In this document: one piece after another, positions 1-27,021 of the stretch
Layout of the letters: every line of letters begins with the position of its first letter
Position numbering within the stretch: position 1 is the first letter of the stretch
NCBI GenBank assembly: GCA_013239625.1
Contig: MU053859.1
Span: 124,001 to 151,021 of the forward strand
Direction: 5' to 3'
Origin: Lama guanicoe
Taxonomy: Eukaryota
DNA length: 27,021 bases
The notes under the pieces: generated by a model
What the model saw: only the letters and a program-made list of their open reading frames with translations
Database searches by the model: none
Told to the model about the DNA's origin: nothing
Program-made: the position numbers and the translations under genes

Positions 1-59
1 TTTTAAGTTAAGGGATTGCCACCCCCCAGGGAATTAATCTATTATTCGATCGTTTTTAG

Positions 60-229
60 TTGAAAAGCACAAATCTTCCACGGAACACGTGTCATGCTTG
101 GATGGCTGGATTGGCTACCTAGGAAAGTGCTTCTATTTTTCTGAAAATACAACCACCTGGGCAGCAAGTCAGAACTTCTGTGCCGCTCACGCTGCAAACC
201 TCGCTGTGTTCAACACCACCAAAGAGCTG
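60..229 (+). CDS. CLEC2-like gene, first CTLD exon (170 nt)
   Basis: Acceptor tttttag ends at 59; donor CTG|gtgagg at 230. Encodes SCLDGWIGYLGKCFYFSE...TTKEL. Confidence 0.92.
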
Positions 230-2159
230 GTGAGGCAATGCTTTGGAACTGTGGTTGTGTTTACAGAGGTTACAGCTGATGGGAGAGTGGAAATGGTCCA
301 AAGAAGACCCTCTCACGAAGCAGAGGAGGCCCCACTTTCCATGTCAGCTTAAACCATAGAAAGAACTCACATCAGGTCAGATCACATTCATGTCACAGGT
401 CAGGTCAGATCAAATCATGGTACGAGTTATCAGGCAACATTCAGGAGATGACTTTCCCCACTTGACTTTTCAACTGGGGGTAGGTGTATTTAGAAACAAG
501 GCATACACTAGGCCTTTTCCCTAAGCCCTACATAAAGCTATTTAAATACTGCTGCCCACTAGAATGACCCCAACTGTTCTTCAAAGATGTTCAGCCACAT
601 AATTACCCAGCTGTACATTTTCAAGAGAAATTACGGCTCCCAACCCCAGGGAAAGTCCAAAATCACAGTTCAGAATTGAGAAGTTCTAACAAAGCCCCCA
701 GTCATGATTAACAGTTGTTCATCTACTAAGTTCATGCTAAATGAAAGTTGCCTTTTGTGAGACTACATGAAAGAAATAATAAACAGAGAGTCATAGCAGA
801 CTGTTTGTCAGAGATGCTGGGAAGAATTAATAAATGAGTCATTATAGCCAAGACGATCTGGGAGCTCTGGGGCACAGAAAAGAGTGAATAGAAAACCTTA
901 AATGTATACAATACAAATTGCCCAAAACAGAAATAATTGAGACGTAGAATGTCAGAGATGGTAAGAGACAGAAAGGTTAAGACTAAGGAGCATAAGGGTA
1001 TATTTATTATTTATAGAAAACGTACTCTACCAGGAATGGGCAGAAGAGAGATTCTCCCATCCTAAAAGGCACCAAACCTAGAAAGATTTACTGACAAGTT
1101 TAATCGCGCTTTCACAGAAAAAAAAAAAAAACTTCTGTTTTACAAAAACTTCTTTAGAAAACAGAAAAGAGAGGAAGCTAACCAATGCAATTTACTACAG
1201 AAGTTGTTACCGAAGTAACACAACCCCTGACCTTACCATGAACCAGATAGTCACCTTTAAGATCTTTCCCAAGTCTGAAAGTCTGCACTTTAATAAAAGT
1301 ATATTGAAGTAGACTGAAAAAAAAAAACCCAAGAGAATGAGGGCTTTGCTATTCATTCTGTAAATATTCTATATTAAAGAATTTCCTGAAGCGATATTCT
1401 GACCATTCTCAGTATTGGATTGGACTGAGGCGAAAACCAGGGCAGACTTGGCAGTGGATAGATGGGACCGTATACAGTGGTTGGTAAGTCCTGGGTATAT
1501 AATTTACACACCTAAAGCTGGGGCTCAGAGCCTTTCCCACCATGGAGAGATCTGAGTTATAATCCACATCCACCGTTCTCCTGGAAACTTCCTTTGTGGT
1601 GGAGAATAAAATGAGCTCAGAGAAAAAGTCATACTGCAAGTTGTAATACAAATGATTTAATGTCTGTCATCTTCCAAAGGTGATGCTTCAACATGATTAT
1701 ATCATCTAACCTCCACAGCAGCTGTGAGGGGTGCATAGATTTACCTCTGTTTTACAGATGAAAAAAATCGGCGTTCAAAGATGTTGAATAATTAGATTAT
1801 CTTAGAATAATCTGCCCTTCTCCATCATATAGGGTATTGTTGTTTTGAGTTTATAAAGCTACCTTTTTAGGGCAACAAAACATACGAATTCAGTTTGCTT
1901 TATGTCCAAACAATGTGGTGTTGGGTTAGAGTAAAATCTCACACCAGAGGAAATTTTTTCTCTAGCCATTCCCATCAGTATCCATTCATTCTGTGCCCCC
2001 GCTTCTTCCTTTTTTCCTTCTGTGTTTTGTTTCAGGTTGAAAATAATTGGAATTGGAGAATGTGCTTATCTACACCAAATTGGGATTAGCAGTGCCAGTA
2101 CACATTTGGTTAGAAAATGGATTTGCAGCAAGCCAGACACATGTATACCAAGAAGCTAA
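60..2159 (+). CDS. CLEC2-family C-type lectin-like protein (CLEC2D/LLT1- or CLEC2A-like), 5'-partial; last 3 exons join(60..229,1380..1483,2036..2159)
   Basis: Manual splicing gives EKHKSSTEHVSCLDGWIGYLGKCFYFSENTTTWAASQNFCAAHAANLAVFNTTKEL|NFLKRYSDHSQYWIGLRRKPGQTWQWIDGTVYSGW|LKIIGIGECAYLHQIGISSASTHLVRKWICSKPDTCIPRS*. CLEC2 signatures present (CxxxWIGxxxKCFYFS, NFLKRY, WIGL, GECAYL, RKWICSK). Splice sites are GT-AG with phases 1/0/2. Cytoplasmic and TM exons lie upstream of the window. Confidence 0.93.
1380..1483 (+). CDS. CLEC2-like gene, second CTLD exon (104 nt, WIGL)
   Basis: Acceptor attaaag|AAT; donor TG|gtaagt. Encodes NFLKRYSDHSQYWIGLRRKPGQTWQWIDGTVYSG(W). Not shown in the ORF track. 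Confidence 0.92.
1690..1795 (-). mobile_element. MIR SINE fragment
   Basis: tcatctaacctccacagcagctgtgagg...ttttacagatgaaaaaa resembles the reverse MIR core. Confidence 0.7.
2036..2159 (+). CDS. CLEC2-like gene, terminal coding exon
   Basis: Long polypyrimidine tract plus ttcag|G. Encodes LKIIGIGECAYLHQIGISSASTHLVRKWICSKPDTCIPRS with TAA at 2157-2159. Confidence 0.92.
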
Positions 2160-2367
2160 GACATCGTAGATCTAAGATATTTCGCATAAAATGAAGTTTT
2201 TATTCCTTTTGAAATATATTAATATACAGGTACATGAAATTCATACTTAGAACTATTCACTAATGTTTCATTCAAATCTGTAAGTCCATTTTTATAAACC
2301 TATTAGATTCTTGGCATTCAAGAAATATATGCCACAACATATCTAAAGGTTTCCAAATCTATTATAG

Positions 2368-2408
2368 AATAAAATTTCTGATACGTAATACATTAAAATA
2401 TGAATAAA
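2368..2408 (+). terminator. Candidate polyadenylation signals of the CLEC2-like gene
   Basis: AATAAA at 2368-2373 and 2403-2408, 210-250 nt after the stop codon. The context is AT-rich, so usage is unproven. Confidence 0.55.
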
Positions 2409-3744
2409 AAGTTAGACATTTCAAGATATATAATCATATGACTTCAGACTGATGTCATTTAAAGCTACTTGTTTTTCTAAGTAAGAACGCTGACATTTTT
2501 ACAGTCTCATTAACTTTATTATCAATGCTAGTTGTTGGCTTTTCTTTCAGTTTTGCAATATTTGCATTATTTGAATTATGAGATTCACTCATGAATGTAG
2601 TGTAACATAGTGTGACAAGAATAGTGCGTAAGTGTGTTGATTTACTAGTTAAATCAATCTCTTTCACACACCAACCTCACAGCAAAAAAAAAAAGAAAAA
2701 ATGAAACAATAATACAATGAGTTCACGTTCAGACCATCATAGGATGGGCGTCAGGTGATGGGCAAACTGTCTGAACTAGCATAGTTCTATTTATAGATGC
2801 AAGGACCTACAACCTGAAGGGCACCAGGAATAGTGTAAATTTGGGGGACAGATCGGGGAGGGAGTGGTTTGAACTTTGTTACTCAAACTTCTTTCTATTT
2901 GAGAAAAACAGCAATTTAGGTTCTGTGTCAGAATATATACTTTTCAGAGGATATTATCTTCATGTTTACTCAAGGTTAACAATATCTCTTTGTAAAACAT
3001 AATTTTTCTTAACATAATTGTGAAACCTGTGATCTGCATCCTATGGGTGCTTAATGTATACTCGCTATTAGAAATTTAAATAGTTCTATTAAACGAATAC
3101 GTATTGGAGAGTAGGGCTAGTAAGAATTTAGGAAAATAACTTAGTAGAATTTCATTCTTTTACGTTTTCTTGTAGACGATACCATTTTCCATCTTTTAAC
3201 CTCTCTCTTTACCCTCATTTTCACTTTTTTCCTCCCTGTTCTTTATAAATGTTTATTTGATTATTTTAATCTCAACATGAATAAGGGAGATAACTGTCTA
3301 CAGGCAAGTAAGTGCCAAGACAGTAAAAGACTAAAAAAGAAAATTTCTTTCCTAGTTAAAATCAACCATTACATGGTTCCTTAGAAAACCCAGGACTTTG
3401 TTCTTAAGGTCTTAATTGTAACAACTTGTATTATTACTCCACTGTTGTCCTGTATCAGGAGTATATAAAGCTATTTTTATTGAAAATTAGACTGTAATAA
3501 ATGGTGGCAAGGAATTTAGCATTTAATCTACAGTTTGTTTAGAAAATCGGAAACTAGATAGACGAACCTTCCAACATTTAATTACCAAACAGTGTAAGAC
3601 ATATAAAAGCAAATGCACATGATGTGCAAGAAAGTTCAGTGCCAGCACAGGGAAGAAAGTGTCTCAGAAAATATAGGACAATAGCGATGAAGAATAGATG
3701 TGAAAAACGAATCCCATGTTTCTCTCCAAGTCAATCAGAGGAAC

Positions 3745-4010
3745 AGTGGTGCTATTAGCTGATATAGACAGAAAAGGATATTTTGGAATTACTGAGTTTT
3801 AGGAGTCGATAGGTAACTCCGGGGGAATGTTTAGGAGGTTGTAGGATGTACTGTTCAGGGACTCCGGAGCAAGTGTAGGCTGGATATAGGAAGTGGATGC
3901 AGACAGAGCTGCAGAGATCTAAGCTGTAAGCTTACATGACAGAGGGAGAAAAAGTGCATGGTGACAAAAGGGGGAAAGGTAGAGCTCAACCAGTAGAGCG
4001 CATGCTTAGC
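3745..4010 (-). mobile_element. L2 LINE fragment (degraded)
   Basis: Purine-rich stretch with L2-like motifs (tactgagttttagg...gtaggctggatatagg). Boundaries approximate. Confidence 0.5.
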
Positions 4011-6539
4011 GTCCTTCAGACAAATAAATCAGCTCATGTGTATTTAAGAAGCATTAAATGACAGTGATGCTTATTCTCCAGCAGATGTCGCAATATTCTG
4101 AAGTATTGGATTTTCAAACCTTCTAGTACTGAATAATGTCCAGAATTAAGTAGAAAAATATACTAATGTTTCCAGTTATAGTTTTAAAAATTACATGATC
4201 ATTGTATTAGCCTTTAATAATAGAGCAGCAATGTCAAGAATCTCTTTGTATGACTCGTGGCTTTTATGGTATCTAATTCTTTCATTACTTAATGACATAG
4301 ATTTTTTTAAATGTCTTCTTAATATTTTTTGAATTAGCATTAAAATAAAGTTACTACTTTAAAAACAAATTGAGAATCGTGGTGTTTTTTAGATAAAATC
4401 AGAAATATTCTCATATCACCATTAGGGGGCGATAATGGATAATTATGCCTGAAGTTGGAAATTTAATTTCTAAAACTATGGAAAGACAACTTCTAAGAGT
4501 TAAGCCTTTTTTATACTTGATTATACTTTTTGCTATATTTTTAAGTATAATATATATGCACTTAAATATAAATAAACCTGTATATGTATGCATATATAGA
4601 TATACACTAGTAAGTTTGAATAAAGTATAAAATTAACATGCTAAATTTTAAATGCTTAGTAGGAAAGCCAGATGTTCAAAACAACTTAATGTAAATGAGG
4701 AAAAATATATATTCAAGAATATAATCTCCTCACTGTGTGAGAGTGAATACGATACTTCATTTGACTTAAGAGAGGCTCGCTTGGAAATGGGAATGCAAAC
4801 TCAATTGATATATGGTATCTGTGGACATTTGTTCCTAGAGTAATAATTTAATACCTATGCATGATGTCATATTAAGAATTTATTGATTCTTTTTATCTTC
4901 TTGGAGTTCTGCTTTTGGCTAGTTCTAAATCATCTCAAACTTCCCACCCTTGAGTTGCCGTACCATTTGATGTGCATTTCATCTATTAAAATAATCCCAA
5001 TTTATTTGTCTTTGTCTTCTGAGAAATAGTCAAAAGATTTCTAAGAATTAAAAAAAAATCAGTGGAAAAGTAATGATATGGGCAGAAAGGAAGTCCCCAG
5101 AAGAATGAAGAAGAAAAGTAGAGTGGACAGTTCCTCCTCCTTAGCCAGGGGTGTTCAGACACGTTCACTCTGCTGAGCTGACTGCTTGGTGAACCGGAAG
5201 CAATCCTGTCTGTGCAGGGCAGACTCAGTAAGGCCCACCTTCCCGTGTGGACCTAACGCCAAAGAAGAACAAGAGGGAGTGGCTGGTGTGAAGATGCAAC
5301 TGGTCCTCTTCTTTATTTTCACACGTCTAGGCTCCCCAGTGTTAGATCTTTTTTGGTTGGTAGAGCTAATGCATCAAATGAGGTGGAAAATGATTAATTC
5401 AAAGAAGGGCCAGGGAGCAAGGGGAGCAGAAATGACATATTAAAAAGGATTTCAGGAGCAAACCTAAGCTATTTTTCCCTTCTGGGGGACTGGAGGCAGA
5501 TGTCACAGTCAGTTCTAATGGGGGTCCAAGTGGGAAGCAGAAAGTGGCCTCATTAAAAGCCTTACCTGGTGAAGCAATAATTTTCCCCAACTGTGAACAT
5601 ACGCAAAAAGCATAAACACACGTACATTCCAAAAGAAGTCTAAAAGCTTAAAGATAAAAGCTTTTAAAATGCCATAAATTATAATTGTCCAGTTTATTCC
5701 TAGAGATTTTTCCACTGAGACTCTTCTAATTTACATATTATTTCATATACTCCCCTCCCAGGTAGGATCACTATATAATTTAAAACATTAATTCGGAGGA
5801 ATGCGTGATCTAAAAATGACTTTAGATGTTGTGATTCAGGCAATCTAGTCCCTCAAAAATATACATATATGGATGTATATATGGAAATAGTACGACAAGC
5901 TTTGTTTTTATGAGGATTTTTAGACATGACTAATTAAAATCATAACAATTTTCCTCAGATCTCTTAATCTTTCATCATTTCCCTCTGCTTCCCTTCAATA
6001 ATTTCTATAATTTTTTTCCACGTTTCTCAAATGTTCCTAATAAAATAGTATGTATTTTTGTATTCATTATACTAAGTAAACATGATTTTGTGTTCTTTGT
6101 GCTTAATTTTTTGAGTCAAAAGTTTTATATTTCATTCCTTATAAATTGTAATTGCTTCTGTTCATACATATGAATTTGAAACAAGTATTTTTTAAAATTC
6201 TTGTATGATCTTGAAGTTTTACTCTTAGTGTATCTAAGACCTTAAAGTAGTTCCATTGGTGAACTTATAGTCAATCAACAAACATCACTGGAGAGACTCT
6301 CTGCTCCAAGTCTCAATGTAGGTTCTTGGTTAAAAACACAAACAAGCAACAAACCTAGGAAATTTCATTTATTGGCCCATATACATCTAACACTGACACT
6401 TATTTTGAAAAAAGAAAAACAGAATGATTTTATTTCTCTGTATGAAGGTTATGATTATCTAGACTAGAGAAGACTAGTAGTAAAAGTCTTGCTGGGAAAG
6501 TCAGAATATGTTACAAATACATAATCAACAACGTACAAA

Positions 6540-8150
6540 GTACTTATTTATCATCCATTCTGCATCAGGCACCTAGTTCACACAGTGACAAGGATTATTG
6601 ACCTTACAGAGCTTACAGTGCATAGAGACACAAGCAATTAAGCAATGGTTCAGGAAAAAAAAGAAACTAAATGTTACAATTAGATCAGCACAGGGAGCTA
6701 TGAAAATATATATTAAATCCTTATAATTTAGTCTGGAGTGGAGAACAGTCAAGGAAGTATTTTCCTCCAGATGACATTTGATTTGGCCACCTGAAAAAAA
6801 AAAAAGCAAGAGTTAAACAGGTGAGCAAGAAAAAGAACAATGTTTGTTATGCTGAGACAAATGTATGATTAGATCAGAGACGAGCCATCATGACGCATCT
6901 GGGGAACTGAACAAAGTTTCGTGTGTTTGCATCACTACAAGGGTGGAAGTCGGGGAGGAATGAAGAGGAGCTGAGACACAAAGCATTTGGTCGGAGACAG
7001 TAAAAGGTTTAAGCAATGAAATACCACTGAAGGGAATTAAGTAGTGAGTGATGTGGCCGAGTGTGAGGTTTAGAGAATCACAGTATGGAGAATGGACTTT
7101 CACAGACAAAAAAAAAAAAAAAAAAGCATGCAGTGACCCAAGATGACTGGGTGTGTAGGAAGATGTGAAAATGGACTCCAGAAGTAATTACATGATAAAA
7201 CTGACAGGACTTAAGTAGATGTTTGAATATTGAGGGTGAAAAGATGGAAGATGTCATGAAACCCTAGAAATACGGGTTTGGGAGTCAACAATAAACGGAT
7301 AGCAATTGAAGTTACAGAGTAACTTACAGCCAATGATTGCATATGATAGAGGACCCACTAAAACTCTGAGGAATATTAATATTTAAGAGATCAGAAAAGG
7401 AAAGAGACCTGCAGAAAAGACTGAGGAGGGATGGATGGAGAGGTAGAGAGAAATTCAAGAGAGCATCGTGCCGTCGACGCTAAGGTCAGAGAACATCTCA
7501 AGAAGAAAGGATCGCTTGACAAAGAGCAACGTTTTTGAGAGTTAAAAGGAAGCCTAGGAAAAGCAGAAACAGATTTTAGAAGAACTTGGAGTGGGAGGCA
7601 GAAAGAGGAAAAAGGAAGCCTAAAAATTTTTAGGAAATTTGACTCCAAAGCGGTGAGAAAAATTGGGCAGGAACTAAAAGCCACATGTGGTTAGTGAAAA
7701 TTTTTCTTGTTGCTCCCACGTTTAATTACTGATAGAAAAGGAAGCATAAGAAGACTGAGCAAATGGTGAGAAATGGGTCTCCTCAAAAAAACTAAAATGG
7801 ATGCAGTCATGACTAGAAACTCGGAGGACTTGGATATTTGATTTAGACAGAAAGAAAGATAGCTCTTTTTTTGGAAATAGGAGGAGAGGACAAACTAATA
7901 AATAAGATACAGATACAGGTGTAGACTCAGTGGTAGAAAGTTCAAGAATATATCATCCGATGGCTTCTTTAAAAAAAAAATTAAATGCTCTCCCCCTAAT
8001 GTGAATGAGAGGTATAGAGAGAGAATTATTGAGGAGACTAAAGGATACTTTGTCTGAAACAGCCACTATCATGCAGGGAGGATGACTAGGGAAATACAGT
8101 TCTAGGTAGAAACAAAGAGTCAGTTAAGGCTGACAGCCCTGGTGGATTGT
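6540..8150 (-). mobile_element. L2 LINE remnant (degraded, fragmented)
   Basis: L2-like motifs (acagagcttacagt, gtcaaggaag...gacatttga, actgacaggactt) in a long AG-rich tract. Boundaries approximate. Confidence 0.6.
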
Positions 8151-8282
8151 GACACAAATCTACACTCTTACCATCAATCATTATCACTATAATATTTGTT
8201 GTAAAAACAAAGTGTTTCCACAAAAATATATAAATTTTTTTAACTCGCACTTTTTTTTATAGGCAGGATACCTGGGATCAAT

Positions 8283-8421
8283 TCAGAGGTCATCATCTGT
8301 GGATGAAGAGATCACATTTTGACAAATCCAGTAACTCTGAAGGAGACACTTTTCAGCAAAAACACCCTTCTTGGTTATCACAGCACAGGCGTTACCTTCA
8401 ACCTCTCCCTGAACTTCAAAT
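8283..8421 (-). CDS. KLR-like receptor exon 6 (C-terminal CTLD)
   Basis: Acceptor gttttcctcgatag|A. Encodes FEVQGEVEGNACAVITKKGVFAEKCLLQSYWICQNVISSSTDDDL*. Confidence 0.92.
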
Positions 8422-11400
8422 CTATCGAGGAAAACAACGTTAGCGACGCCCATGGAAGCTGGACTCTTTCCCAGATATGAGTCCTCCCTCGGCCAAAAGC
8501 ACACAAAAGCACAACTGTGTGGTGCCTGTGTTTTTTCTCTCAGGAGAATGTACTCTCCAAGCTGGAATCTAAGACACTGTAATAGTCAGACAGGGAATGT
8601 ACATTCAAAACAATTTCTTTTATGAAGGAATTCCTCCAAATAGTTTCTTAACCAAATAACGGTCATTTGTAAATAGAAATACTACATGGAATTAAAATGA
8701 AAATAAAAATGTAAGAAACACTGGTGAAAGGTAAGAAATCCGTGTGATAGTATGAAAAGGAAAGGTCTTAGGGACTGCAGCCGTCTGCGGGTGTGCCCCG
8801 CCCCTACACTTCCTAGGTTAAAATCCTAACTCCTTGAAGTGACAGTGTGAGGAATTAGGACCTTTGAGAGGTGCTTAAATTATGAAGGTGGAACCTTCGT
8901 GAATGGGATTAGTTCCTTATAAAAGGGTCTCTAGAGAGCTCCCTGGCCCCTTCCACCATATGGGGACATGGTGAGAAGGCTCCGGCTACAAACCAGGAGC
9001 CCTCACCAAAACACAGTCATTCTCCCGCCTTGCTCTGGGAATCCCACCCTCCAGAACTGTCGAAATACGTCCCTGTTGTGTATAAGCTACTTAGTCTGTG
9101 GGATTTTGTTATAGCAGTCTGAACAGACTAAGATCTTCTAAAAACCTCCTCTCACTGTTTGTCTCTGATGATCTTCCTTGTTCTTACAAAAGGTCCTGAG
9201 AAAGAAGAACACTCTTTGGCACACCTAGACTCCACCTGCTAAAGACGCAACAGCGACCCCAGACCGGATGAGGAGGGGGAGGAGTTAGAGAGAGGAGGAG
9301 GGAAGAAGATCAATCCCCTTCAAAATTTTTAAACTCACATGGACACCCCAACAAGAGTATTTCTGTGCTCGTATGTAAATAAGGATGTACCCAACCCCCT
9401 CACCCTTAACACAGAAGGAAACTGCCCCTAAATTCTGTTTCTTTTCCTGTCTTCAACAAATAAGCCACAAGAAATCTTAAAAATCAGAAAATACTCAAAG
9501 AACCAGATTAGCAAATTAATCATTCTAAGCAAGTCTGAATGTGGGTTGACGGAACATCACTTTAAAAATACGGGAATAGATTTCTACTAGACATAATCAA
9601 AGGTAAAAATTTTAAATTAATTTAGTGTGTGTGGTATACAGAGATTATGACATGTGTGGGTACAGAACATAAATTTTAACAGGAGAGACTGTAAATAGTC
9701 TCTGGGTAAGAACATTCATTCATTCATTCATATTCACTCATGCATTTGTAGGGTGATTTTCTTAATATTTCCCAACAATTGAAGTCATTAATCAAAATAA
9801 TGATACTAGTACTAAAAAAAATACTAATCAAAATAAAGATTATTCTGTAAATCTTTAAGAAACACTTTGTAAGAATTTAAATTAGAGACTTCTACATTGA
9901 CCATGATTTTCCATTTATAGCATTATTTCCATTTATAGCATTATCTGTAAATTAAAAGAAAGTCCAAATATGAAAATACATTAGCTTAGGAGCTTTTATT
10001 TCACTAAGGCAAATTTCCTGCCCATTTGCACACTAATAATAATTAAAGTCTTCAATCTGTGGGAACCAACTGGCTACCTGGAGGTTCAGGCAGCCCCCGT
10101 AAGGATTGGTACCCAAATGCCAACACTCACAACTGTAGATTTAATGGGGTACTATCCAGCCAGGTCCATGCCTTTTGTGGATATGTAATGTTCAATCCGA
10201 TCCAAAAGTAAATCCCATCTTGTATATTGCTCTGCACGAAATCCTGTGAAAGGAGGTCCAGAGGAAATTGTTACACCTATTGAAATAGCTTCTTCTGACT
10301 TTTAATAGGACTTGAAAGTTTTTGATACTTATCTTTCTATTTAGTAAAGTATTAAGAAGGCTGACGAGGTTTCCTATATATGTGTGTGTGTGGAGAAGGA
10401 AATTGATAAGGGAAGGTTTTCAAAACACTCTTGTGTACATGCATACATTATGTGAAAATGTGTACTACTTAATGGAGTTCATGAGGATGATGGTATAAAT
10501 TGCAACTGATGAAAGAGTTGCAAAGAGAAGATGAAGCAAAAACTAGGAATTAATAAGTCTGCCTAAAGGAGCAACAACTATCTCTGATGGCTGACGTCCA
10601 CCAGTGTGCAGTTGTGAATAAGATGGATGCTTATGGTGAAACTAAGTAATGAAACTAACGAACCCCAGACACTAGGCATAGTGTAAGGTATTGATAACGC
10701 TTTCGGTGAGCACCTCAAAGAGCTCCTATCTTTCTCTCCCAGAGATAATGTGAAAGGGTGGCATCAATATCCCAGTGAAATAGGCAAGTTTATACAACCT
10801 GTCAAGTTCTGCAGATTCCTCTTAGGGAAATACTGCCTAGCTCATAAGGTTATTGTGAGCACTAAGTTATATAACCTTTGTAACATGCCTACCACAGTGC
10901 CTGGCATATGGTAGGAATTTGGTAAGTGGCAGTCATTATTTGTCCTATAATTCTTTCATTATAAAATATACTTATTTCTCTTAGCTTTAAAGGGGCTTTT
11001 TTCATAGCAAATCAGCTCTTACCAGTTCAGCCTTGTCTTGGATTATCAAGAGATGTGACTTCGTTATTGAACAGGCTTTTTGGCTATCAATCCATGATTT
11101 AAAGGTTCTGAAAAAGTTATAGCATTTCTCTTCTTTCTGCACCCAGTCATTAAGGCATAAGTTTAGGCTAGGTTTTTCTGAAATAGAAAAATAGAAGGAA
11201 TAGGATTGAGCAAGGTTTGAGTATCAAAAACCATTTTGGCATTAATTTTGCAAACTAGTTCTTTAAAAATAAAGGTTTTTGCCTCACTTTTAAGAAATGA
11301 ACTCCTCTTCCACTGATAAATAGTCTTTAGAAGCAATAAATGCCAGAAATAGTCATAGTTATTATTGGTTAATTACTACAGGTCGGATAATTTCCTGAAT

Positions 11401-14400
11401 TCTTAGCACACTTGAATATATGAAATGTTTTTCCTTATAAGAAAGTTATGAAATACATACAATTATTAATTTCATGATCCTCATTTTGTAAATAAAGGTA
11501 TTAAAGCTAAGGCTAGGGAAGTATACAGTAGGAAACTAAAGTAAAGTTTAAGTAACTCACTCAAGGTCATATAGCTAATAAGTGGTAGGGCATAGGAAAA
11601 CTTAAACAGAGAGTCTAAATGCCAAATGCCTAAAAGGCAGCAGGAGGAAACTGTTTTGAAAAGAAAGTTCTTTTCGGAGTCCCTTTGGATGCAGAAGAAT
11701 ATGTTTCATAACACTTTTTATCAGTGACTTTGTAAAACAAAATGTTTACCATGATCCCAGTACTTCTATGACCACCAGACTTACCTCTAAGAAATGGAAA
11801 AACCTGAGAAAGTTAGTAAAATCAACCTATATTCAGAAATGGGTGCACACACATCTCAACTGTACTAATAATTTTTATATTTTAAGCTAAGTAGTAGGTA
11901 CATAAGTATTGACTGTATTCTATTTAAATTTCTGTATATTTTAAATACTGCATAATATTTTTAATATCCACAAATCTGTGTGAAAACTTACCTGATATGC
12001 TTATAGTAAATGAAACAAACATGAAAATATGAACTGTAGAATACTCTACACAAATGTGAGTTATAACCACTAGAACCTGTGGGAGCGCTGGAGAGAGGGT
12101 ATAAGGAGTCACATTACTAGGGGGAAACATCACATACTACGTTTCTGTTTTGAATCAGCAGAGCACCCTGATTTTTCACAACCCTCTCTCCAGAGCATTT
12201 TCTTTAGAAGTCATAACATCAAAGTGGGCTTTGAAATAATATAGTAATAAATCAGATTTTAACTGCATTGGCCAGGTAAATTACCCAACAATATACTTCA
12301 GACCAAAGCTGCAGACAAATTTTAGTTTTGCTGAAATTCAGTGTCATAAACAATTGACAGAAATAAATGACTTCAAGCTCTTCTGCTTATTCAGAGGGTT
12401 CCCTTGCTATGACCTTCGCTAGGGTAGAATTTGGCCTCTAAAATAAAGCACAAATGATTCACTTTACTCTTCTTATTTGCCTGAAAGTCACAGACCTCAA
12501 CAATGAAGAAAGCCAAGCTCTGTCAGTGTAGTAATATGGAAGGCAATTCATCCATTGAAAATCACAGTTATTTGTAGAGAGAGTGACTGTTATTGACACG
12601 CCAAAGATAACATGGTGGAAAGTCAACAAATAATTCATGAGTGCTGTCGTGCTGGGAGCCCCACGGGAGGAAGGCCTCCGGTGGTCCAGAGAAGCCCAGA
12701 AGCATGCATGCTTGGGGAGGAAGAGAGAAATGGTCATAATAGGGAATAACTGAGATGACCAATAAAAGAGGCATGCCATTATAAAGACTAAATCTCAAGG
12801 GGAAAGTACCATCATAAGCATACACATTAGCTATATTTTCATATTATATTCTATGACTCTGGTATGGCCATCAGTATTTAACTTGAACGAATTATTAACC
12901 CAAACTTAACATCAAGACAATAAATATATTTTAGTATAATTCATGGTACTCAAACTGTGCAAAAGTTTATAGTTTTAGGTAGATTTTTTTTTGACTTGGA
13001 AAATAGTTGTAATTTGTGAGGAAGTTTCATTCTCTTCTTTTACAATAAACACATAAATAAGAAAAAAATAAGCACTCCATTTTTTTTCTTTACAAAAGGG
13101 CAAAGATGATGAAGAGGCAGCTTACAGAATAAAAAAATTCAAAGATCTAACGTATGTGATTTTGCATTTAATTTCCCGTACTACATAAGAAATACAACTA
13201 AAATCAACTATGTGTATTTTATCATATTATATTAGCATGTATAGTCTGAACTACGTATGTGTGTTTGTGTGTGTCTTTGAAAGGATGAGAAGGTAGGAAG
13301 TTGCAATGGAGAGAAATATTCAAAAGAGATGGATAATTGCTCTTACAGGAAGTGAAGACTCAGAGGGACTTGCAGACTACGTTAACGCGCTTAGAATTCA
13401 CTCTAAGGACTACAGAAAGTCACTGCAGAATTTAAAGTTCAGGAGTGCCTGGCTGCTGATCTGCATGTTAGAAACATCCCATTGGCTGCATGGAGGATGA
13501 ATAAAGATCCAGATAAAATTATGTCACTAATTCCCTTCATAGTGAGACATACCGATCTCCAAATACCTTACAACTCAATCTTTTGAGAGTACAATTTTTA
13601 AAGAATGATCTAAGTCACCCTAATCACATATTATAACAAATAATAATTATAAAAACAGCAATCAGCAGAGTATAGAAGAGTCAGCTACATGGATAAACAT
13701 AGGAATATAACGCTGGTATAACGTCCTTGGGTAACAGAGTAAAAGGCAATCATATCAATAAAACTATTGCAGACTAATGCACCTCACCATTTTCCACCAA
13801 ATCATCTCCAACAGTGAAGGACAATGAACTTGTTCCTTAAGGGCCCAGGCACAATCTCCTGAAAAGCTGATTTCATCTTAGGTTCTCACACAAATGCTAC
13901 ACTCTAATCCTCACTATACTAACTCGATTAACTTCCATCAAATAAAATTGATGTTCCAGGAACATGACTCTATTGTCATCAAGTAATGTAAGCACAGAAC
14001 CAGCCCCAAACTGGCCCCATCTTGTTTCTAACAAGATACTAAGTTGTTCTCCAGAGAAAACAGAACAAAACCACAAGTTCTGCAGCCAAAGCATGTGCAG
14101 AGGAGAAAATTCTGATCTCAAGCAACACTAGGAACCAAAGTGTCTCCCCGAGTGGCGTTAAAGGACTGGAACACGACTGGAACCTGAAGGCTTGAGGGCT
14201 TTCAGAAGCGAAAGGTCTATTGTCCAGGATGATTCAGAGCTGATCTTTTCTGCATTTTTTTTTTACCCCTTAACCATATGTTACCAGAAACAGCACACCA
14301 GCCTCCCTGCCCTAACTCACGGACGCTTGACCGAAACCCAGACCAGGGAGGCCGGTTCAAGCCTCCTGTCTCCTTGCTAGTGGGCCTCGCAGTACATCTT

Positions 14401-17400
14401 TTTCTTTTCTCAGAAGCCAGTGTCATAATATTAGCTTCTGTGCGTGTCAGGGAGTGAGCCCTTTGCTCCTTGACTGTGATCATATCATCCTCAACCACAC
14501 CACGTCCTGTGCTCACCTTACCTTTCAATATTTGCACGCTTAGTGCGAGCAGCTACTCTGGACCTCTGTCAGGAAAGAGTTTTATTGGTTTAAGCCTCAT
14601 GTGGAAGTGGTATTTGACTGTATCTCACACATCTGGCTGGCGGGGACTTTTTCTTAAATGTTTTGCTGTCTCAACATGTCTTATCATTAAGCCAGGTGTT
14701 TTGTATATGCCTCTAAGTCTATAAATCAAATAAATGCATTAAAACGTTGAAAAATGGGAAGAGAGAGTGATGTTGAAACCGAGTTCCCCTGACACCGAGC
14801 TTCTCTGCAGAGTTTATGACTAACCACTCTATCTAAAATCTTATTCCCTTCCTCGTCCAATACCTGTTCCCCTAAGATTGAAGAACATCAAAGGAAGGGA
14901 GGAAAGGGGGAGTTGAAACCGAGCAGGACCCGGGGGCCCCTCCCAGGTACAAAAGCCTTTCCAGATCCCCTGTTTCTCATTTGTAGGCTTCAGTCTCTTA
15001 GACCTTCCCTGAGTTCCAAAGGGCAGAGGCAAACAATTACTGATGGGGCGCGAGGAGGAAAGGCAGAAACAGAGGAGAAGCAGTCAAGAAACAATAGTGC
15101 AGCAATAAATCGGGGTCTTGGTTCCTCCTCAAGGGATGTACATAGCAATATACCTCTGAGTTCGTCCACAGGAACTAAGGGCCCCACCCAGGTGGGGGAT
15201 GGTAACTTCAGGCTGAGCACAAGCATGTGGACCCCTGACTGGTAGGCTCCAGAAGGCTGATGATTGACATTCCTGGAGCAACTCTCTGTTACCTCATCAC
15301 CAACCAATCAGAGGAAGGTCGCACACCCTGCAGACCTCCCCGCAAATTGTGCCTATGAAAACTCTTCCTCAAAACCATCCAGGGGTTCAGGGGCCCTTGC
15401 AATAAAACCTTCTCTGCTCAAAACTCTAATGTTTGAGTATCTTTGGCCTCACTGTGCTTTCGGACACACAAACTCGGGTTGGACGACAATATGTGTGTTC
15501 CCTAGCAAGGAAATTACAACACTGGAAGTAGCAGCAAGTTGGCTGTTGGAGACAGCGGTACTGAGAAGAGTTTTAGCAGCAGTAAGGCGAGCACGTATAA
15601 TCCAAACGGTGGGCCTGAACAAATTAGCAGGAGCCAGACTTGGAGGCAAAGAACTGAAATAAGAAAATGACTTCAAACCACTGAAAGGGATCTGAGTTCG
15701 CCAGGCCAACATACTCCATTTTGATACAAGGGTCATTTTAAGCTGAAGACACTTGAGATGCAGCAGATACAGGAGGAAGCCTTCCCTTATCTGACTAGAA
15801 GCAGACACTTCTGAGAGAGAAGGCTGCCATAAATCCCCCTTTTAGGGTAGCTTACCCCCAGGAGAAAGACTGAGAGGAAACCTACCCGAAGTTCCTTCTC
15901 TCGGGGAATTTTTGGCCATGAAGAAGAAGAAGAGACTACTCACATCCGCTTGAACAGACGCGGTCGCCGGTTCTTACTTCCCGTTTGTACTCTTGAAAAA
16001 CCCACTTGAGTAGAAAGACAAGTGTGTCTGTTCCATCAAAGTCATTTCTTCTCCCTCCCTTTCCCCTGCTAAGTAGGTGCCCAAGCCTTTACCTTTAACC
16101 ACTTAGAGTCAGCTGCTTCTTTTGTTAGCTCGCATATGCATACAAATAAACCCTTCTCTCCTGTTAATCGGCGTTGTCCTCCCCTACAACATAGTGAAAT
16201 AAAACCACTCACTTGTGAAGTTTGTATTGTCCTGCTGTTTCCTGGGAGAGAACTTCATACAATTGCACTCTTTGGTTCCATTCTCACTACCAAACATCTC
16301 GCTGCAGGAATATGTGCTCAGATGACTTACTAAGAAATGAAGAAAAGTAGTAACGCTAATTAGATTTCTACAAACATAACCCTGTGCCTTTTAATTCTCC
16401 ATTAAAACAAGTGAATGCACAGACTGCTGGTTGACAGGAGGTCTGTTTCTAACATTTGCACCTTTTAATTTGACAAAGGATGGTAATAAGCTTAGAGATT
16501 CGGATGTCCACTTAGGGAAAAAGTACGTAGAAATAATAAAAACAAATTGCCTAAATAAATTCAAAATATATTTAAATTTGCATCTGTTTAGTATAATAGG
16601 TTAGAATTCTGTGTGATCTTCAACTAGTAATGCAGCCTCTCTGTTCCACAGTTTCTTCATACATAAAACGGGGAAATATTTAACGAACTTAGACTTCTTG
16701 TAAGGCTGAAAGATAATGTTCATAAAATGCTTATCACAACTCCTAACATGTGTAGGTCACAACAGATGGAAACAGTAGCAGATAGAATTACAGCTCTTAC
16801 TGAGGTAGATCTCATTTTTAGGAATAAATCTTTAATTTTACTTACCCTTCAAATTTCAAGCAACTGACAAATGTTGTCAAAACTTCAACATATCAAGTCA
16901 CATGTAAAGTGTAAAAGTTTTATGTAAATGACCAAATCAACTTTCACAAAACTAAATGCTTTCACCAAAAAATAAAACTCCAGTTCATGGAATTGTGACT
17001 ACTAAACTCGCACCGTTTAGCGATTAATTACTATTATGAGCAGAACAGACTTTATAAATGAACAAGATTTTTATGTCTTCTGTATAAGGAAAAACTACTA
17101 ATTATTAATAAAATCATCAACTGTGTCATTTAATACCAACATAATTTTTTAAAACGATGAAAGAGAATATCAGGTAAAGGTGAACAATGATTCCGGAAAA
17201 GTTAGAGAAATTTTTAAAACTCCAAAGGAAATATGTTGGTCTCGACAGTTGAACATACAGCTTCAATTTACTCACCCCAAGTGGTTAGTCCTAACACTGC
17301 GACGACAAGCAAAATCAGGGCGATGCTAGTCAGTCTCAGAGCAGTCTGATGCCATTTTGGACATTCAGGGTAATCTGTAAGAATTAATTTTTGTTTCTGA

Positions 17401-18647
17401 AATATTTAAACGTTTAAAATGAACTTGAAAATGTGTCATACAAATGTCATATTTGGAGGGTATACATTATCTTAAGGTGAGGGAAAAAAAACTACAATCT
17501 CTGTTTAAATTTCCTCGCCACAGAGAAAGGAGGGGAGGGACAATTTAGGAGTTTGGGATGAACAGACACACCTACTGTATATAAAATAGATAAACAACAA
17601 GGGCCTAGTGTATAGCACGGGGAACTATATTCAGTTTCTTATAACAAGGTATAGCAGAGAAGAATTTGAAAATATATGTAATTATATTTTCTATATAGTT
17701 GAGAAACTAACTGGAACTGACATTGTAAGTCAACTACACTTCAATAAAAAGATAAATTAAAAACATTCATATTGCCACAAAAAAATTAATAAATTGCCTT
17801 ACCATGAACACATGTTTAATTATCTGTAAAAAACTGGACGTGTTGATTCTAAATTAGGAGTCAATGTGCTTTATTTGCTATTTATTAAATACTCCTCTTA
17901 ACACTTCTGTTCCAAAACTATAATTCATATAATAATCACATTAATTAAAACATGTCCACTAAAATCTGTCATTTACCTTTATGTACATCTTGACTGAATT
18001 AAACAGATAATATTCATTGTGACTGAGGCCCAGGAAGGAAAAATATAAGTACCAAAATACCAAAATAATTGAATGACAGTAAAAATGAGTGCCTCATGTA
18101 GAAACATAAACAAGATTGAGTACTGCAGCCATCTATTTTCCTAAATGTTGTTTGAAATAAAAGTTGTATATCTATGTCAATTCGTGAAACAAAACTCAGG
18201 TGCCAATCTTTATGATTATAAACTTTGCTTCGATTAAGGAAGCATTATAACACTTTCATAATTTTTAACCCAGATCAAGTCAAATCTGATCCATTATATG
18301 CTCAATTGAACAATATTTATAAACGTATAATCACATGCCAGGAACTGGGCTGGATGTAAGCGTTGCAGAGAGAAAACTGCCCAGCCGATGGGGAGACATC
18401 TGTGTAAGCCTATTATTTCAGAATAAGTTCATGAATTTTCTGAGCAGTAAATTCTAGTTCAAGTTCTTAAAAACTTCCCATTAAAAGCCTAAGATTACGA
18501 GACCCACAGAAAATTCTCACTGTATCAATTCCTACCTTTGCATGTCCACTTGTGTTGGCAGTGGTAGGGATGTTTCCTTGGCTTCTTCACCATTGCTCTC
18601 TCTGTGTTTTGACTCTGTCCAAACTTTCTATAAATAGAATAATCCAT
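8283..18647 (-). CDS. Killer cell lectin-like receptor, KLRB1(NKR-P1)/KLRF-like type II membrane protein, 244 aa, 6 exons
   Basis: Exons of 112+99+117+155+113+139 = 735 nt, open throughout: MDYSIYRKFGQSQNTERAMVKKPRKHPYHCQHKWTCKDYPECPKWHQTALRLTSIALILLVVAVLGLTTWVSHLSTYSCSEMFGSENGTKECNCMKFSPRKQQDNTNFTKKPSLNLCLNDWVQKEEKCYNFFRTFKSWIDSQKACSITKSHLLIIQDKAELDFVQSNIQDGIYFWIGLNITYPQKAWTWLDSTPLNLQLFEVQGEVEGNACAVITKKGVFAEKCLLQSYWICQNVISSSTDDDL*. All six CTLD cysteines present; WHQxALxL pre-TM motif as in NKR-P1; FWIGLN; phases 1,1,1,0,2. Confidence 0.93.
8776..9135 (+). mobile_element. MLT1A-type (MaLR) solo LTR
   Basis: Diagnostic segments gaatgggattagttccttataaaagg, ccagaactgt, gttatagcagtctgaacagactaaga; ~360 bp; in intron 5, antisense to the receptor. 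Confidence 0.88.
9908..9943. repeat. Perfect 18-bp tandem duplication
   Basis: tttccatttatagcatta x2. Confidence 0.9.
10131..10243 (-). CDS. KLR-like receptor exon 5 (WIGL)
   Basis: Acceptor cctttcacag|GAT; donor TT|gtgagt. Encodes DFVQSNIQDGIYFWIGLNITYPQKAWTWLDSTPLNLQ(L). Confidence 0.93.
10775..10940 (+). mobile_element. MIR SINE
   Basis: ctcataaggttattgtgag...acagtgcctggcatatggtagg matches the MIR 3' half. Confidence 0.8.
11023..11177 (-). CDS. KLR-like receptor exon 4 (N-terminal CTLD)
   Basis: Acceptor ttttctatttcag|AA; donor CTG|gtaaga. Encodes KPSLNLCLNDWVQKEEKCYNFFRTFKSWIDSQKACSITKSHLLIIQDKAEL. Confidence 0.93.
11470..11620 (-). mobile_element. MIR fragment
   Basis: aagtaactcactcaaggtcatatagctaataagtgg resembles the reverse MIR core. 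Confidence 0.65.
14771..15488 (+). mobile_element. ERV1-type solo LTR (family not identified)
   Basis: TG...CA termini with an imperfect terminal inverted repeat (TGTTGAAACCGAGTT / AACTCGGGTTGGACGACA). AATAAA at 15401-15406 is followed by a U5-like tail. No clear TSD. Confidence 0.75.
15682..16188 (+). mobile_element. MER34-like ERV1 solo LTR
   Basis: Starts TGAAAGGGA..., contains ttttaagctgaagac..ttgaga..agcagatacagg, ends aataaac...tctcctgttaatc...tcctcccctaCA, as in MER34-type LTRs. Confidence 0.75.
16213..16329 (-). CDS. KLR-like receptor exon 3 (stalk)
   Basis: Acceptor ttttcttcatttcttag|TA; donor A|gtgagt; 117 nt, phase 1-1, open. Encodes VSHLSTYSCSEMFGSENGTKECNCMKFSPRKQQDNTNFT with Cys residues and N-glycosylation sequons NGT and NFT. 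Confidence 0.85.
16608..16780 (+). mobile_element. MIR SINE
   Basis: ctgtgtgatctt...cctctctgttccacagtttcttcatacataaaacgggga matches the MIR core. Confidence 0.75.
17276..17374 (-). CDS. KLR-like receptor exon 2 (transmembrane)
   Basis: Acceptor attcttacag|AT; donor G|gtgagt; 99 nt. Encodes (D)YPECPKWHQTALRLTSIALILLVVAVLGLTTW. Confidence 0.93.
17521..17790 (+). mobile_element. 5'-truncated cetartiodactyl-type L1 3' end
   Basis: ggagtttgggat..acagacac...tatataaaatagataaacaacaag...tatagcacggggaactatattca...caactacacttcaataaaa plus an A-rich tail. Degenerate 14-bp TSD at 17507-17520 and 17791-17804. Confidence 0.88.
18300..18425 (-). mobile_element. L2 3'-end fragment
   Basis: aacaatatttat...atgccaggaactgggctggatg resembles a reverse L2 tail. 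Confidence 0.5.
18536..18647 (-). CDS. KLR-like receptor exon 1 (cytoplasmic tail)
   Basis: Strong Kozak context aacATGG; donor AAG|gtagga, phase 1. Encodes MDYSIYRKFGQSQNTERAMVKKPRKHPYHCQHKWTCK. Confidence 0.85.
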
Positions 18648-24815: not shown

Positions 24816-26590
24816 ATAGTATAGTTTTTCCCTAATTAGAATTTTTGTCAAGGTTCTATTCTTTCACTGCCTGATTAATGCTTCTCCAACACAGTATCTT
24901 CAGACTGACCACAAGCATCAGATCTTTTGAAATCAACTCTTAGGTAACACCTCGTTCAGATACTCATTTGTGTAAACATAACAAATAAACAAATATCTGA
25001 TTAATGCCTATGATCTGTAACTGTCTGAAGTAACTGAGAGTTTGTTTTGGAACGTGTGTTGATTTTGCCACTCCACTCTTGACATTGGTGGTGAAAAACT
25101 GATGGTAAAAAAAATTCTTCTCGGGGAGACAGGAGAAGATGGCGGAGTAGAAGGGTCCTCGCAGCTCACCCTCTCCCACAAATACACCAAGACCCACATC
25201 CACAGACCCACTCAGCCAACCAGAGCACCTGCGGATCTCCGACAGAACATCGCCCTCTTCAAAAGATAAAGACGCCCAAAATCTGGTAGGAGAAAAGGCA
25301 AAAAGAAAGGACAAAAGGCAAAGCAGCGCGGGACGGGTCCCGCGGGGAGGGAGCAGCAAAGGAGGACTGGCACTTGCTCGCTGGGTCTCCCCTCTCCAAC
25401 TGAGAGGCCAGCGGGACGGAGTGGGAGCCTCCGAGGCTCGGATCTGTACAGAGCAGCCCTTGTCTGACAGAACAAAGTTAAACGGGCACAGAGCATCCCC
25501 CCGACACCCAGCCTGAGACGCGGGCCGGCAGCGGCGGGCAGGGCCAGGCTGCACAAGCCGGGCGGAGGATGGGGGCGGCTGCACGGAGGCAGCTCTGGGG
25601 GACTGCAAGGGGCTGGGCGCCATGGCTGTGGGTGTACAGGACAGAACAACCTGGGCCCTCCATAAAACAGCAAGGTTGATGTGCTCTCGGGGGAGGGGTG
25701 CACACCCCCATCTCTGAAAACACGCGGAAACTTTTCAGGGGAAGAGAGGCGGGGCCCAGGCGGGGCCGCCATATTCTCAGGCGCTGAGCACCCGAGCGGG
25801 GGCGGGGGCGAAACCTGCATCCGCACCGAAGGGCTCAGCAGCCTCAAGGGCCAGACTGAGACGGGCCTACAGCCCGGGGCAGGTGGGATCCTTCCATCCT
25901 GGTCCTTCAAAGAACTTGCTCCACAAAGACAAACAAGGATCTGGGTCTTGGCTCAGAGCAGGGACGAGGCTGCCCCTCGGTCTTCCCCGAGCCCACCCGC
26001 GGAGCGCGACCAGGGCGGAGCGCGCAGCCGCACAGAGCAGCGGAGCTACCGGTGGCGCAGGTAGAGGGACAGCGGCCCCCCGCCGGTAGGGCAGGAACAC
26101 AGCCCCTGACCGAGGTGCTGGGAGGGGACACGACCCGCCCTCCTGCCTGGCCAGTCTGCAACATCTGACTGCGGCATCCGGAGGGGCAGTGACCCACCCG
26201 CCCGCAGCAGAGGAGAGCTGCACCTGACCCCGTGTTAGGAGGAGGCGCAATCTGCTTGCTGACACGTGCTGGGAGCAGCAAAGAAGAGGGAGCCAACGGA
26301 GGGCCTATGAAAACAAGCTGCGCTTCCAAAACAGGATGAAGGCAGAAAGACTTCACATTAAAAGCACACAGACTCCAGGAGAACACCAACAACACCCCCC
26401 CCTTTTTTTTTAAATCTGTTTTTACCTGTTCTATTTTCTATTACTCTCTTAATTTTTACTTCTTAATTCATTTCTATTTCTATTGGGTATTGATGTCCTG
26501 TTATTGATTAGACACAGGTTTCAAATACATCTATTCATCTCCCGCCCTTCTTTTTTTTTTTTTAAAGGTTTTAAAAGGATGTCTCAACCC

Positions 26591-26613
26591 NNNNNNNNNN
26601 NNNNNNNNNNNNN
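26591..26613. other. Assembly gap
   Basis: Run of N. Confidence 1.
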
Positions 26614-26740
26614 TCTTTCTCCCTTAAAAATCTTTCTCTCTCTCTCTTTTTTCTTTTTTTTTCCCTAAGTTCTATTCCTAAATAGGCATTAGATAGATAA
26701 AATCCTTAAGATCCAAAATAGACAACTGATACTATACTCC

Positions 26741-26893
26741 NNNNNNNNNNNNNNNNNNNNNNNNNNNNNNNNNNNNNNNNNNNNNNNNNNNNNNNNNNNN
26801 NNNNNNNNNNNNNNNNNNNNNNNNNNNNNNNNNNNNNNNNNNNNNNNNNNNNNNNNNNNNNNNNNNNNNNNNNNNNNNNNNNNNNNNNNNNNN
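26741..26893. other. Assembly gap
   Basis: Run of N. Confidence 1.
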
Positions 26894-27021
26894 TTAAGGA
26901 ATTAGATAGTGTTTAGAGATATAAAATGTCAAAAATGAAATTGAAGCTATAAAGAAGAGCCAAGTAGAATGGGTAAACTCATTGACAGAGATAAGGAATG
27001 ATCTAATAGCTGTGCTGTGCA

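Follow-up and report, generated by a model that had tools for sequence, protein, structure and literature searches.

Known C-type lectin-like receptors of the KLRF group and their CLEC2 ligands are encoded side by side. NKp80-AICL (KLRF1-CLEC2B) and NKp65-KACL (KLRF2-CLEC2A) are pairs of six- and five-exon genes lying tail-to-tail, 7 and 3 kb apart; their receptors are activating, carry an N-terminal hemITAM (a hemi form of the immunoreceptor tyrosine-based activation motif; DGYxxL/ERYxxL), and engage ligands with a docking arginine (gene distances and motif definitions from PMC3819593). In NKR-P1A-LLT1 and rodent Nkrp1-Clr, the receptor has a Trp-His juxtamembrane motif and a tyrosine in the position of an ITIM (immunoreceptor tyrosine-based inhibitory motif); the NKR-P1A-LLT1 genes are not tail-to-tail. 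A shared docking mode is supported (PMC3972465), and three contacts, around LLT1 Tyr165, Arg175 and Tyr177, are common to the solved complexes, and Tyr201 stacks with Arg175 (PMC9418145). A further receptor, KLRF3, has been named in carnivores, with a transmembrane arginine and no hemITAM, in a setting where KLRF genes were amplified together with presumed CLEC2 ligands (PMC11484026). Here we analyze a 27,021-nucleotide stretch of the guanaco (Lama guanicoe) genome, contig MU053859.1 positions 124,001 to 151,021 (the window), containing a receptor gene and a CLEC2 gene at the corresponding position. The initial annotation of this stretch put the two forward as an unrecognized candidate pair, but published work of 2019 and of 2024 had already given the genes names and suggested that they are receptor and ligand. 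Judged by sequence and gene order, the pair is the camelid copy of KLRF3 and its CLEC2 neighbor, already in print. To the published naming we add a greater age, an inhibitory reading, a swap of docking residues and an antisense overlap.

Results

The KLRF3/CLEC2 pair sits between CD69 and CLEC2D, tail-to-tail, as the NKp80-AICL and NKp65-KACL pairs do. An intact receptor gene on the minus strand and a CLEC2 gene on the plus strand converge, as first annotated, with stop codons 6,123 bases apart, and the four receptor motifs picked out at that stage all lie on the minus strand, at 17354-17331, 11160-11143, 11061-11041 and 10168-10154. The receptor has six exons with canonical AG/GT ends and an open frame of 244 amino acids (ATG at 18647 to TGA at 8285-8283), identical to the alpaca RefSeq protein P0004 from Met19 onward. 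The ligand coding exons in the window (60-229, 1380-1483 and 2036-2159) are open, and over all five exons the frame matches alpaca P0293 at all but 2 of 195 residues. Five exons, a type II transmembrane segment, a CLEC2 lectin domain and a clade shared with CD69 and CLEC2A/B/D (100/100) place the ligand in the CLEC2 family. Splicing was read from contigs of four runs, one from each of four studies, of a close relative (90-99% alike), aligned to window positions 1-9000; that these runs are RNA is our guess, as none is recorded as RNA. Annotated proteins are the basis for the receptor start site, for an internal splice acceptor in its first exon and for read-through from CLEC2D. The features, in window coordinates unless stated, are:

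contig 120218-120266 and 122475-122615, plus strand: ligand exons 1 and 2, left of the window by 3.8 and 1.5 kb
60-229, plus strand: ligand exon 3, first lectin-domain exon; joined to the transmembrane exon in 4/4 runs, loose end at 58
1380-1483, plus strand: ligand exon 4; joints in 4/4 runs, skipped in 3/4
2036-2229, plus strand: ligand exon 5; stop at 2157-2159, splice donor 70 bases past the stop; docking residues Tyr166, Ser176, His178 and Leu179
8263-8720, plus strand: ligand alternative last exon, antisense across all of receptor exon 6; AATAAA at 8702
18536-18647, minus strand: receptor exon 1, cytoplasmic tail; ITIM-like S-x-Y-x-x-F at 18638-18621, internal splice acceptor at 18627
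17276-17374, minus strand: receptor exon 2, encoding the Cys-Pro-x-Trp-His juxtamembrane motif and the membrane-spanning segment, with Arg51 at the cytoplasmic edge
16213-16329, minus strand: receptor exon 3, stalk with three cysteines
11023-11177, minus strand: receptor exon 4, lectin domain
10131-10243, minus strand: receptor exon 5, lectin domain; joined to exon 6 in 1/4 runs (loose end at 8421)
8272-8421, minus strand: receptor exon 6 (coding 8283-8421); stop at 8285-8283, splice donor 11 bases past the stop; docking residues Phe220, Glu222 and Lys223
6354-6790, minus strand: receptor untranslated last exon; AATAAA at 6373

On the contig to which the window belongs (C1821), translated searches took in 221 of 224 kb, 7,458 bases being N. 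The gene order is CLEC2A+ KLRF2- CLEC2B+ KLRF1- CD69+ ligand+ receptor- CLEC2D- CLEC2D11-like-, with three tail-to-tail KLRF-CLEC2 blocks in succession. The next contig (C1746) holds a further CLEC2D11-like copy followed by KLRB1+, the only true KLRB1 detected in this genome. Neighboring genes were named in part by likeness to PDB chains. KLRF1, KLRF2, KLRB1, CLEC2A, CLEC2B, CLEC2D and CD69 are each present as copies of their own on one or other of these contigs.

Protein and mRNA accession numbers are linked by an offset rule. Cat XP_019690037 and ermine XP_032203105/XP_032203111, orthologues in our set, match the mRNA numbers of the carnivore study by constant offsets, and the ermine ligand is its 'CLEC2D-like' gene (PMC11484026). 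The gene order around KLRF3 in cat, ermine and sea lion equals that of the guanaco contig, and the guanaco receptor likewise lies between CLEC2D and CD69, on the strand of CLEC2D and facing a CLEC2 gene, with a transmembrane arginine and no hemITAM. The carnivore pairs of KLRF3 with 'CLEC2D-like' or 'CLEC2F' share position, orientation and neighbors with the guanaco pair and are its orthologues, and their receptors are 70-75% identical to ours; in that study, CLEC2F appears to denote one gene in some species and another gene in others, and the table entries for cat and civet are ambiguous in name. In the dromedary, KLRB1B is listed with the putative ligand CLEC2F, the receptor having an ITIM (PMC6614441). 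KLRB1B and CLEC2F are also the NCBI names of the camel orthologues, and we equate the two sets of genes from these names and from the gene count. In databases the receptor goes under the names KLRF1, KLRF2 or KLRB1B, and the ligand under CLEC2A/D/E/F-like. Our literature search for a third pair returned no match, the text of PMC13756075 and PMC12747268 offered nothing particular to this pair, and no binding or functional study of the KLRF3 pair was found in a search that left subscription papers mostly outside its coverage.

Although called KLRB1B in the dromedary, the receptor is nearer in its lectin domain to KLRF1 (44% identity) than to KLRB1 (38%), with KLRF2 at 36%; its best PDB matches among natural killer (NK) receptors are 8QMD and 4IOP, and a protein-cluster search (Atlas) with the receptor gave general KLR clusters only. 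The ligand had been described as about equally distant from LLT1 and KACL. It is closer to CLEC2D (50% lectin-domain identity; 50-54% for the CLEC2D11-like copies) than to CLEC2A (42%), and its PDB profile scores are 163.5 bits for LLT1 and 149.1 bits for KACL. We built a tree from a chosen subset of 40 lectin domains (16 receptors, 12 ligands, 11 alpaca genes and one deer piece). The receptors form one clade (17 rows, 97/97), with leopard, mink and fur seal inside it, and the ligands another (13 rows, 99/99); KLRF1, KLRF2, KLRB1, CLEC2A/B/D and CD69 all fall elsewhere, in agreement with the earlier view that the pair is distinct from the characterized genes. With one sequence per paralogue and unsettled bootstrap values, the branching order among KLRF1, KLRF2, KLRB1 and the KLRF3 clade stays open in this tree.

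We considered whether either gene is an orthologue of a characterized one. KLRB1 lies on the next contig and shares only the 38% given above with the receptor, and CLEC2A, CLEC2B, CLEC2D and CD69 are all separate genes, 36-50% identical to the ligand. Nor do we find support for the mosaic of NKR-P1 and KLRF parts that had been seen in the receptor: its transmembrane exon matches KLRB1 at 11/33 positions, KLRF2 at 10/33 and KLRF1 at 6/29, and its lectin exons are 29-51% identical to the paralogues without a consistent split. The deer prediction P0287 fuses a different lectin gene to ligand exon 5. We take that gene to be CLECL1-like, a name that Atlas did not give; it has no close match in this genome, which suggests that the CLECL1-like gene is separate from the pair.

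Orthologues were sought by a word-limited search of annotated proteins, to which the presences and absences given here refer; 49 of 130 receptor candidates and 31 of 86 ligand candidates were accepted, from elephant, golden mole, elephant shrews, rabbit, pika, rodents, horses, bats, carnivores and camelids. Because the clades span Afrotheria, Glires and Laurasiatheria, the pair predates the placental radiation and hence the carnivores, whereas the carnivore study dates the KLRF amplification to the carnivore ancestor, with ungulates and bats noted (PMC11484026). Both genes lie on a scaffold of equal length in 22 species (hand count), evidence that they are linked but not that they are adjacent. 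No primate, mouse or rat is named among the 49 receptor and 31 ligand matches. The initial annotation's statement that the pair has no functional human counterpart is thus likely correct as far as annotated proteins go, and the pair has apparently been lost in humans and mice; the human interval contains only CLECL1 (PMC4041007). Joint retention and loss hold in part. Both genes occur in the 22 species above; in the carnivore study ermine and sea lion have both, brown bear has lost both and dog keeps fragments of both (PMC11484026, table), but ruminants, squirrels, elephant seal and colugo are discordant or ambiguous. In other rodents (records P0030, P0034, P0029, P0050, P0280 and P0281), proteins that carry the KLRF1 label in hamster, gerbil and vole are the KLRF3 receptor, and sand rat and Arvicanthis retain the ligand, so the losses in mouse and rat could be of recent date.

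We then modeled the complex, without alignments of our own. The receptor-ligand model scored 0.72 against 0.31 for the best control, with at least 95% contact agreement between runs and a predicted local distance difference test (pLDDT) value of at least 89, on the same predicted docking face as in NKp80-AICL and NKp65-KACL. The mark used is reached by 51/78 solved and 2/108 mismatched microbial pairs, and by 39/65 and 2/126 for eukaryotes. Because like complexes have already been solved and close cousins pass too, the score shows only likeness to solved pairs. The contact residues are more informative. The docking tyrosine is kept in the ligand, while the docking arginine is replaced by Ser176 in 26/26 ligands with exon 5 (27 examined), and 24 orthologues have histidine at the place of LLT1 Tyr177; LLT1 Arg175, Tyr177 and Glu179 thus correspond to Ser, His and Val in a ligand that is otherwise closest to LLT1. 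Alpaca CLEC2A, CLEC2B, CLEC2D and both CLEC2D11-like copies keep the arginine. On the other side, position 223 of the receptor, at the place of NKR-P1 Tyr201, is Lys or Arg in 34/41 receptors with exon 6 (49 examined), where the alpaca paralogues have Thr (KLRF1), Asp (KLRF2) and Asn (KLRB1). The model pairs Ser176 with Lys223, and this putative swap fits a dedicated partner without proving one. The receptor and its CLEC2 neighbor probably bind as a cognate pair. The ligand lacks a cysteine in its stalk but carries a free Cys164 and, in the tail, Cys191.

The receptor lacks the KLRF hemITAM, as first annotated: the pattern occurs in 0/50 receptor proteins, whereas alpaca KLRF1 carries it. Like NKR-P1 receptors, KLRF3 instead has a Trp-His juxtamembrane motif and a tyrosine at the ITIM position. 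The N-terminus, compared in 23 receptors, reads x-x-Y-x-x-F in 15, Y-x-x-V/I in 7 and otherwise in 1, and the ITIM consensus (S/I/V/L)xYxx(I/V/L) is fitted by 6/23. Consensus-type ITIMs occur in rabbit, pika, squirrel and elephant shrew; Laurasiatheria, including alpaca, have Phe at +3, and elephant has Phe at -2. Mean column conservation is 0.84 in the receptor tail, 0.83 in its lectin domain and 0.90 in the ligand lectin domain. Within the tail, Cys30, Cys42, Pro43 and His46 are invariant (Cys/His-rich stretch, 18560-18536 and 17374-17350), and this stretch could be a metal-binding, palmitoylation or kinase-binding site; the Lck motif CxCP, found in NKR-P1, is present in 0/49 receptors. Arg or Lys is kept at the membrane edge in 37/37 transmembrane exons, and the next 18 residues are uncharged in all 37. 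Charges that pair with adaptors generally sit mid-membrane or toward the outer side, and Arg51, at the cytoplasmic edge, would be poorly placed for such pairing. Given this placement and the conserved ITIM-like tyrosine, a functional receptor is more likely inhibitory than activating, and we favor inhibition with modest confidence.

In 3/4 runs the ligand transcript has a GT..AG joint, 2229>8263, on the plus strand, and a poly(A) loose end lies at 8720, which places this transcript antisense over receptor exon 6 (8272-8421). Annotated dromedary isoforms use the same alternative last exon, and its splice sites are intact in the window. A junction more than 50-55 bases past the stop marks a transcript for nonsense-mediated decay; by this rule the ligand transcript with the 2229>8263 junction, 70 bases past the stop, would be a target. 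The receptor last exon is joined in 1/4 runs, with a matching loose end in a second and a poly(A)-type end at 6354 in a third. Processed copies were rejected as an explanation for these joints, since exon 3 has no other close copy in the genome. Our literature search on the receptor/ligand antisense overlap found no mention of it. In annotated models from alpaca, panda, cat and hamster, splicing enters exon 1 at the internal acceptor AG at 18627, which would drop the tyrosines from the receptor. In annotated chimeras from alpaca (P0002), giant panda (P0045) and Chinese hamster (P0104), CLEC2D exons 1-4 (C1821 165238-165134) run in frame onto this acceptor; these are possibly recurrent read-through or an annotation artifact.

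Discussion

The structure and order of the genes, their separate clades, the splicing observed in a close relative and the conservation of motifs are directly supported. Taken as a whole, the explanation that we prefer, for and against which we stand evenly balanced, is an old placental KLRF3-CLEC2 pair whose receptor binds its neighbor head-to-head and dampens the lymphocyte through an ITIM-like tyrosine. On NK or T cells the receptor would form a type II dimer joined by disulfide bonds, and the ligand would be displayed on other cells, the two docking in the fashion of NKp65-KACL and NKR-P1-LLT1. Specificity may come from ligand Ser176 and Val180 (Arg and Glu/Asp in LLT1, KACL and AICL) opposite receptor Lys223. 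The signal would pass through Tyr6, and splicing into the acceptor at 18627 would yield a tyrosine-less form. We would further guess that the antisense last exon of the ligand damps receptor expression in ligand-making cells. The most far-reaching version, in which this is a fourth NKR-P1/CLEC2 pair, spread across placentals and overlooked because neither humans nor mice have kept it, inhibitory, with a private Lys223/Ser176 code, a splice switch and antisense either/or expression, we think unlikely to hold in full.

Several observations weigh against the preferred explanation. Close cousins of a true partner reach the complex mark in 10/12 cases. The +3 Phe is not a consensus ITIM, 26/49 annotated receptors are without that N-terminus, and the carnivore study takes the receptor arginine as an activating transmembrane charge (PMC11484026), where we find the conserved ITIM-like tyrosine. 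Elephant seal keeps KLRF3 while its ligand is a pseudogene (PMC11484026, table); the receptor is present in ruminants (cluster of 32 members) and squirrels (26 members), with no intact ligand among the 86 candidates, a deer exon-5 piece being the sole ruminant trace; and colugo yielded a ligand whose end is altered, but no match to the receptor. Finally, Old World camel ligand records have changes at conserved sites, Cys87Tyr in dromedary and Leu111Pro in Bactrian and wild camel, which may reflect relaxed selection on the ligand.

The best-surviving alternative, though a rather improbable one in our estimate, is that the receptor is real but non-exclusive, binding several CLEC2 proteins (CLEC2D and CLEC2D11-like), with the layout a relic of the duplication that yielded three KLRF-CLEC2 blocks. 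The ruminants and squirrels speak for it, as do the several CLEC2D11-like copies nearby and Glu222, the partner of the ligand arginine in NKR-P1-LLT1, which is kept in 97%; main-chain contacts, moreover, largely underlie docking (PMC9418145). However, the Ser/His/Leu patch of the ligand is invariant or nearly so and lies opposite Lys223 in the model, and the ligand absences come from the word-limited protein search.

A cognate but activating pair, in which the arginine recruits an adaptor with an immunoreceptor tyrosine-based activation motif (ITAM), or a kinase is drawn to the tyrosines and the Cys/His-rich tail, seems to us doubtful. Activation was proposed for carnivore KLRF3 (PMC11484026, section 3.4), and in 16/37 transmembrane exons the ever-present Arg/Lys lies within the best 21-residue window, at position 3-5, horse having a second Arg at the outer membrane edge; the invariant tail residues would also suit this arrangement. 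In 21/37, though, the charge stands directly before that window, on the cytoplasmic edge rather than where adaptors pair, and the missing CxCP and the consensus-type ITIMs of rabbit, pika, squirrel and elephant shrew argue the other way. That the camelid pair is decaying, with the antisense exon and read-through forms as transcriptional noise, is very improbable: the camel ligand changes, an alpaca receptor off the orthologue consensus at Pro118 and Gly192, and repeated carnivore losses (PMC11484026) would agree with it, but both frames are open with all splice sites present, spliced transcripts come from four studies and the alpaca ligand retains every lectin-domain cysteine.

What is recorded as 'KLRF1/NKp80' for hamster, gerbil, cattle, horse or bat may be KLRF3. 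If the pair is cognate and inhibitory, livestock, cats, bats and rabbits would have in it an immune checkpoint that is invisible to human and mouse work, and its swapped docking residues would make it possible to test directly what determines specificity among linked lectin pairs.

Neighboring genes and other observations

At least four to five near-identical CLEC2D11-like copies stand beside the single KLRB1 (C1821 196.7-198.6 kb; C1746 8.0-9.9 kb; L032-L034) and are a camelid expansion of Clr-like ligands. The CD69 gene (C1821 93393-93527) has Tyr in place of the second lectin-domain cysteine of CLEC2 proteins, and CLEC2B exon 4 deviates from the WIGL and WxW motifs. A simple pattern search of KLRF2 (C1821 19-41 kb) gave no hemITAM-bearing first exon, and the gene may be altered here. 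By eye, several long terminal repeat (LTR)-like elements lie in the receptor introns (about 13990-16170), and a GC-rich 5' end of a long interspersed nuclear element 1 (LINE-1), with assembly gaps, lies upstream of the receptor (25120-27021).

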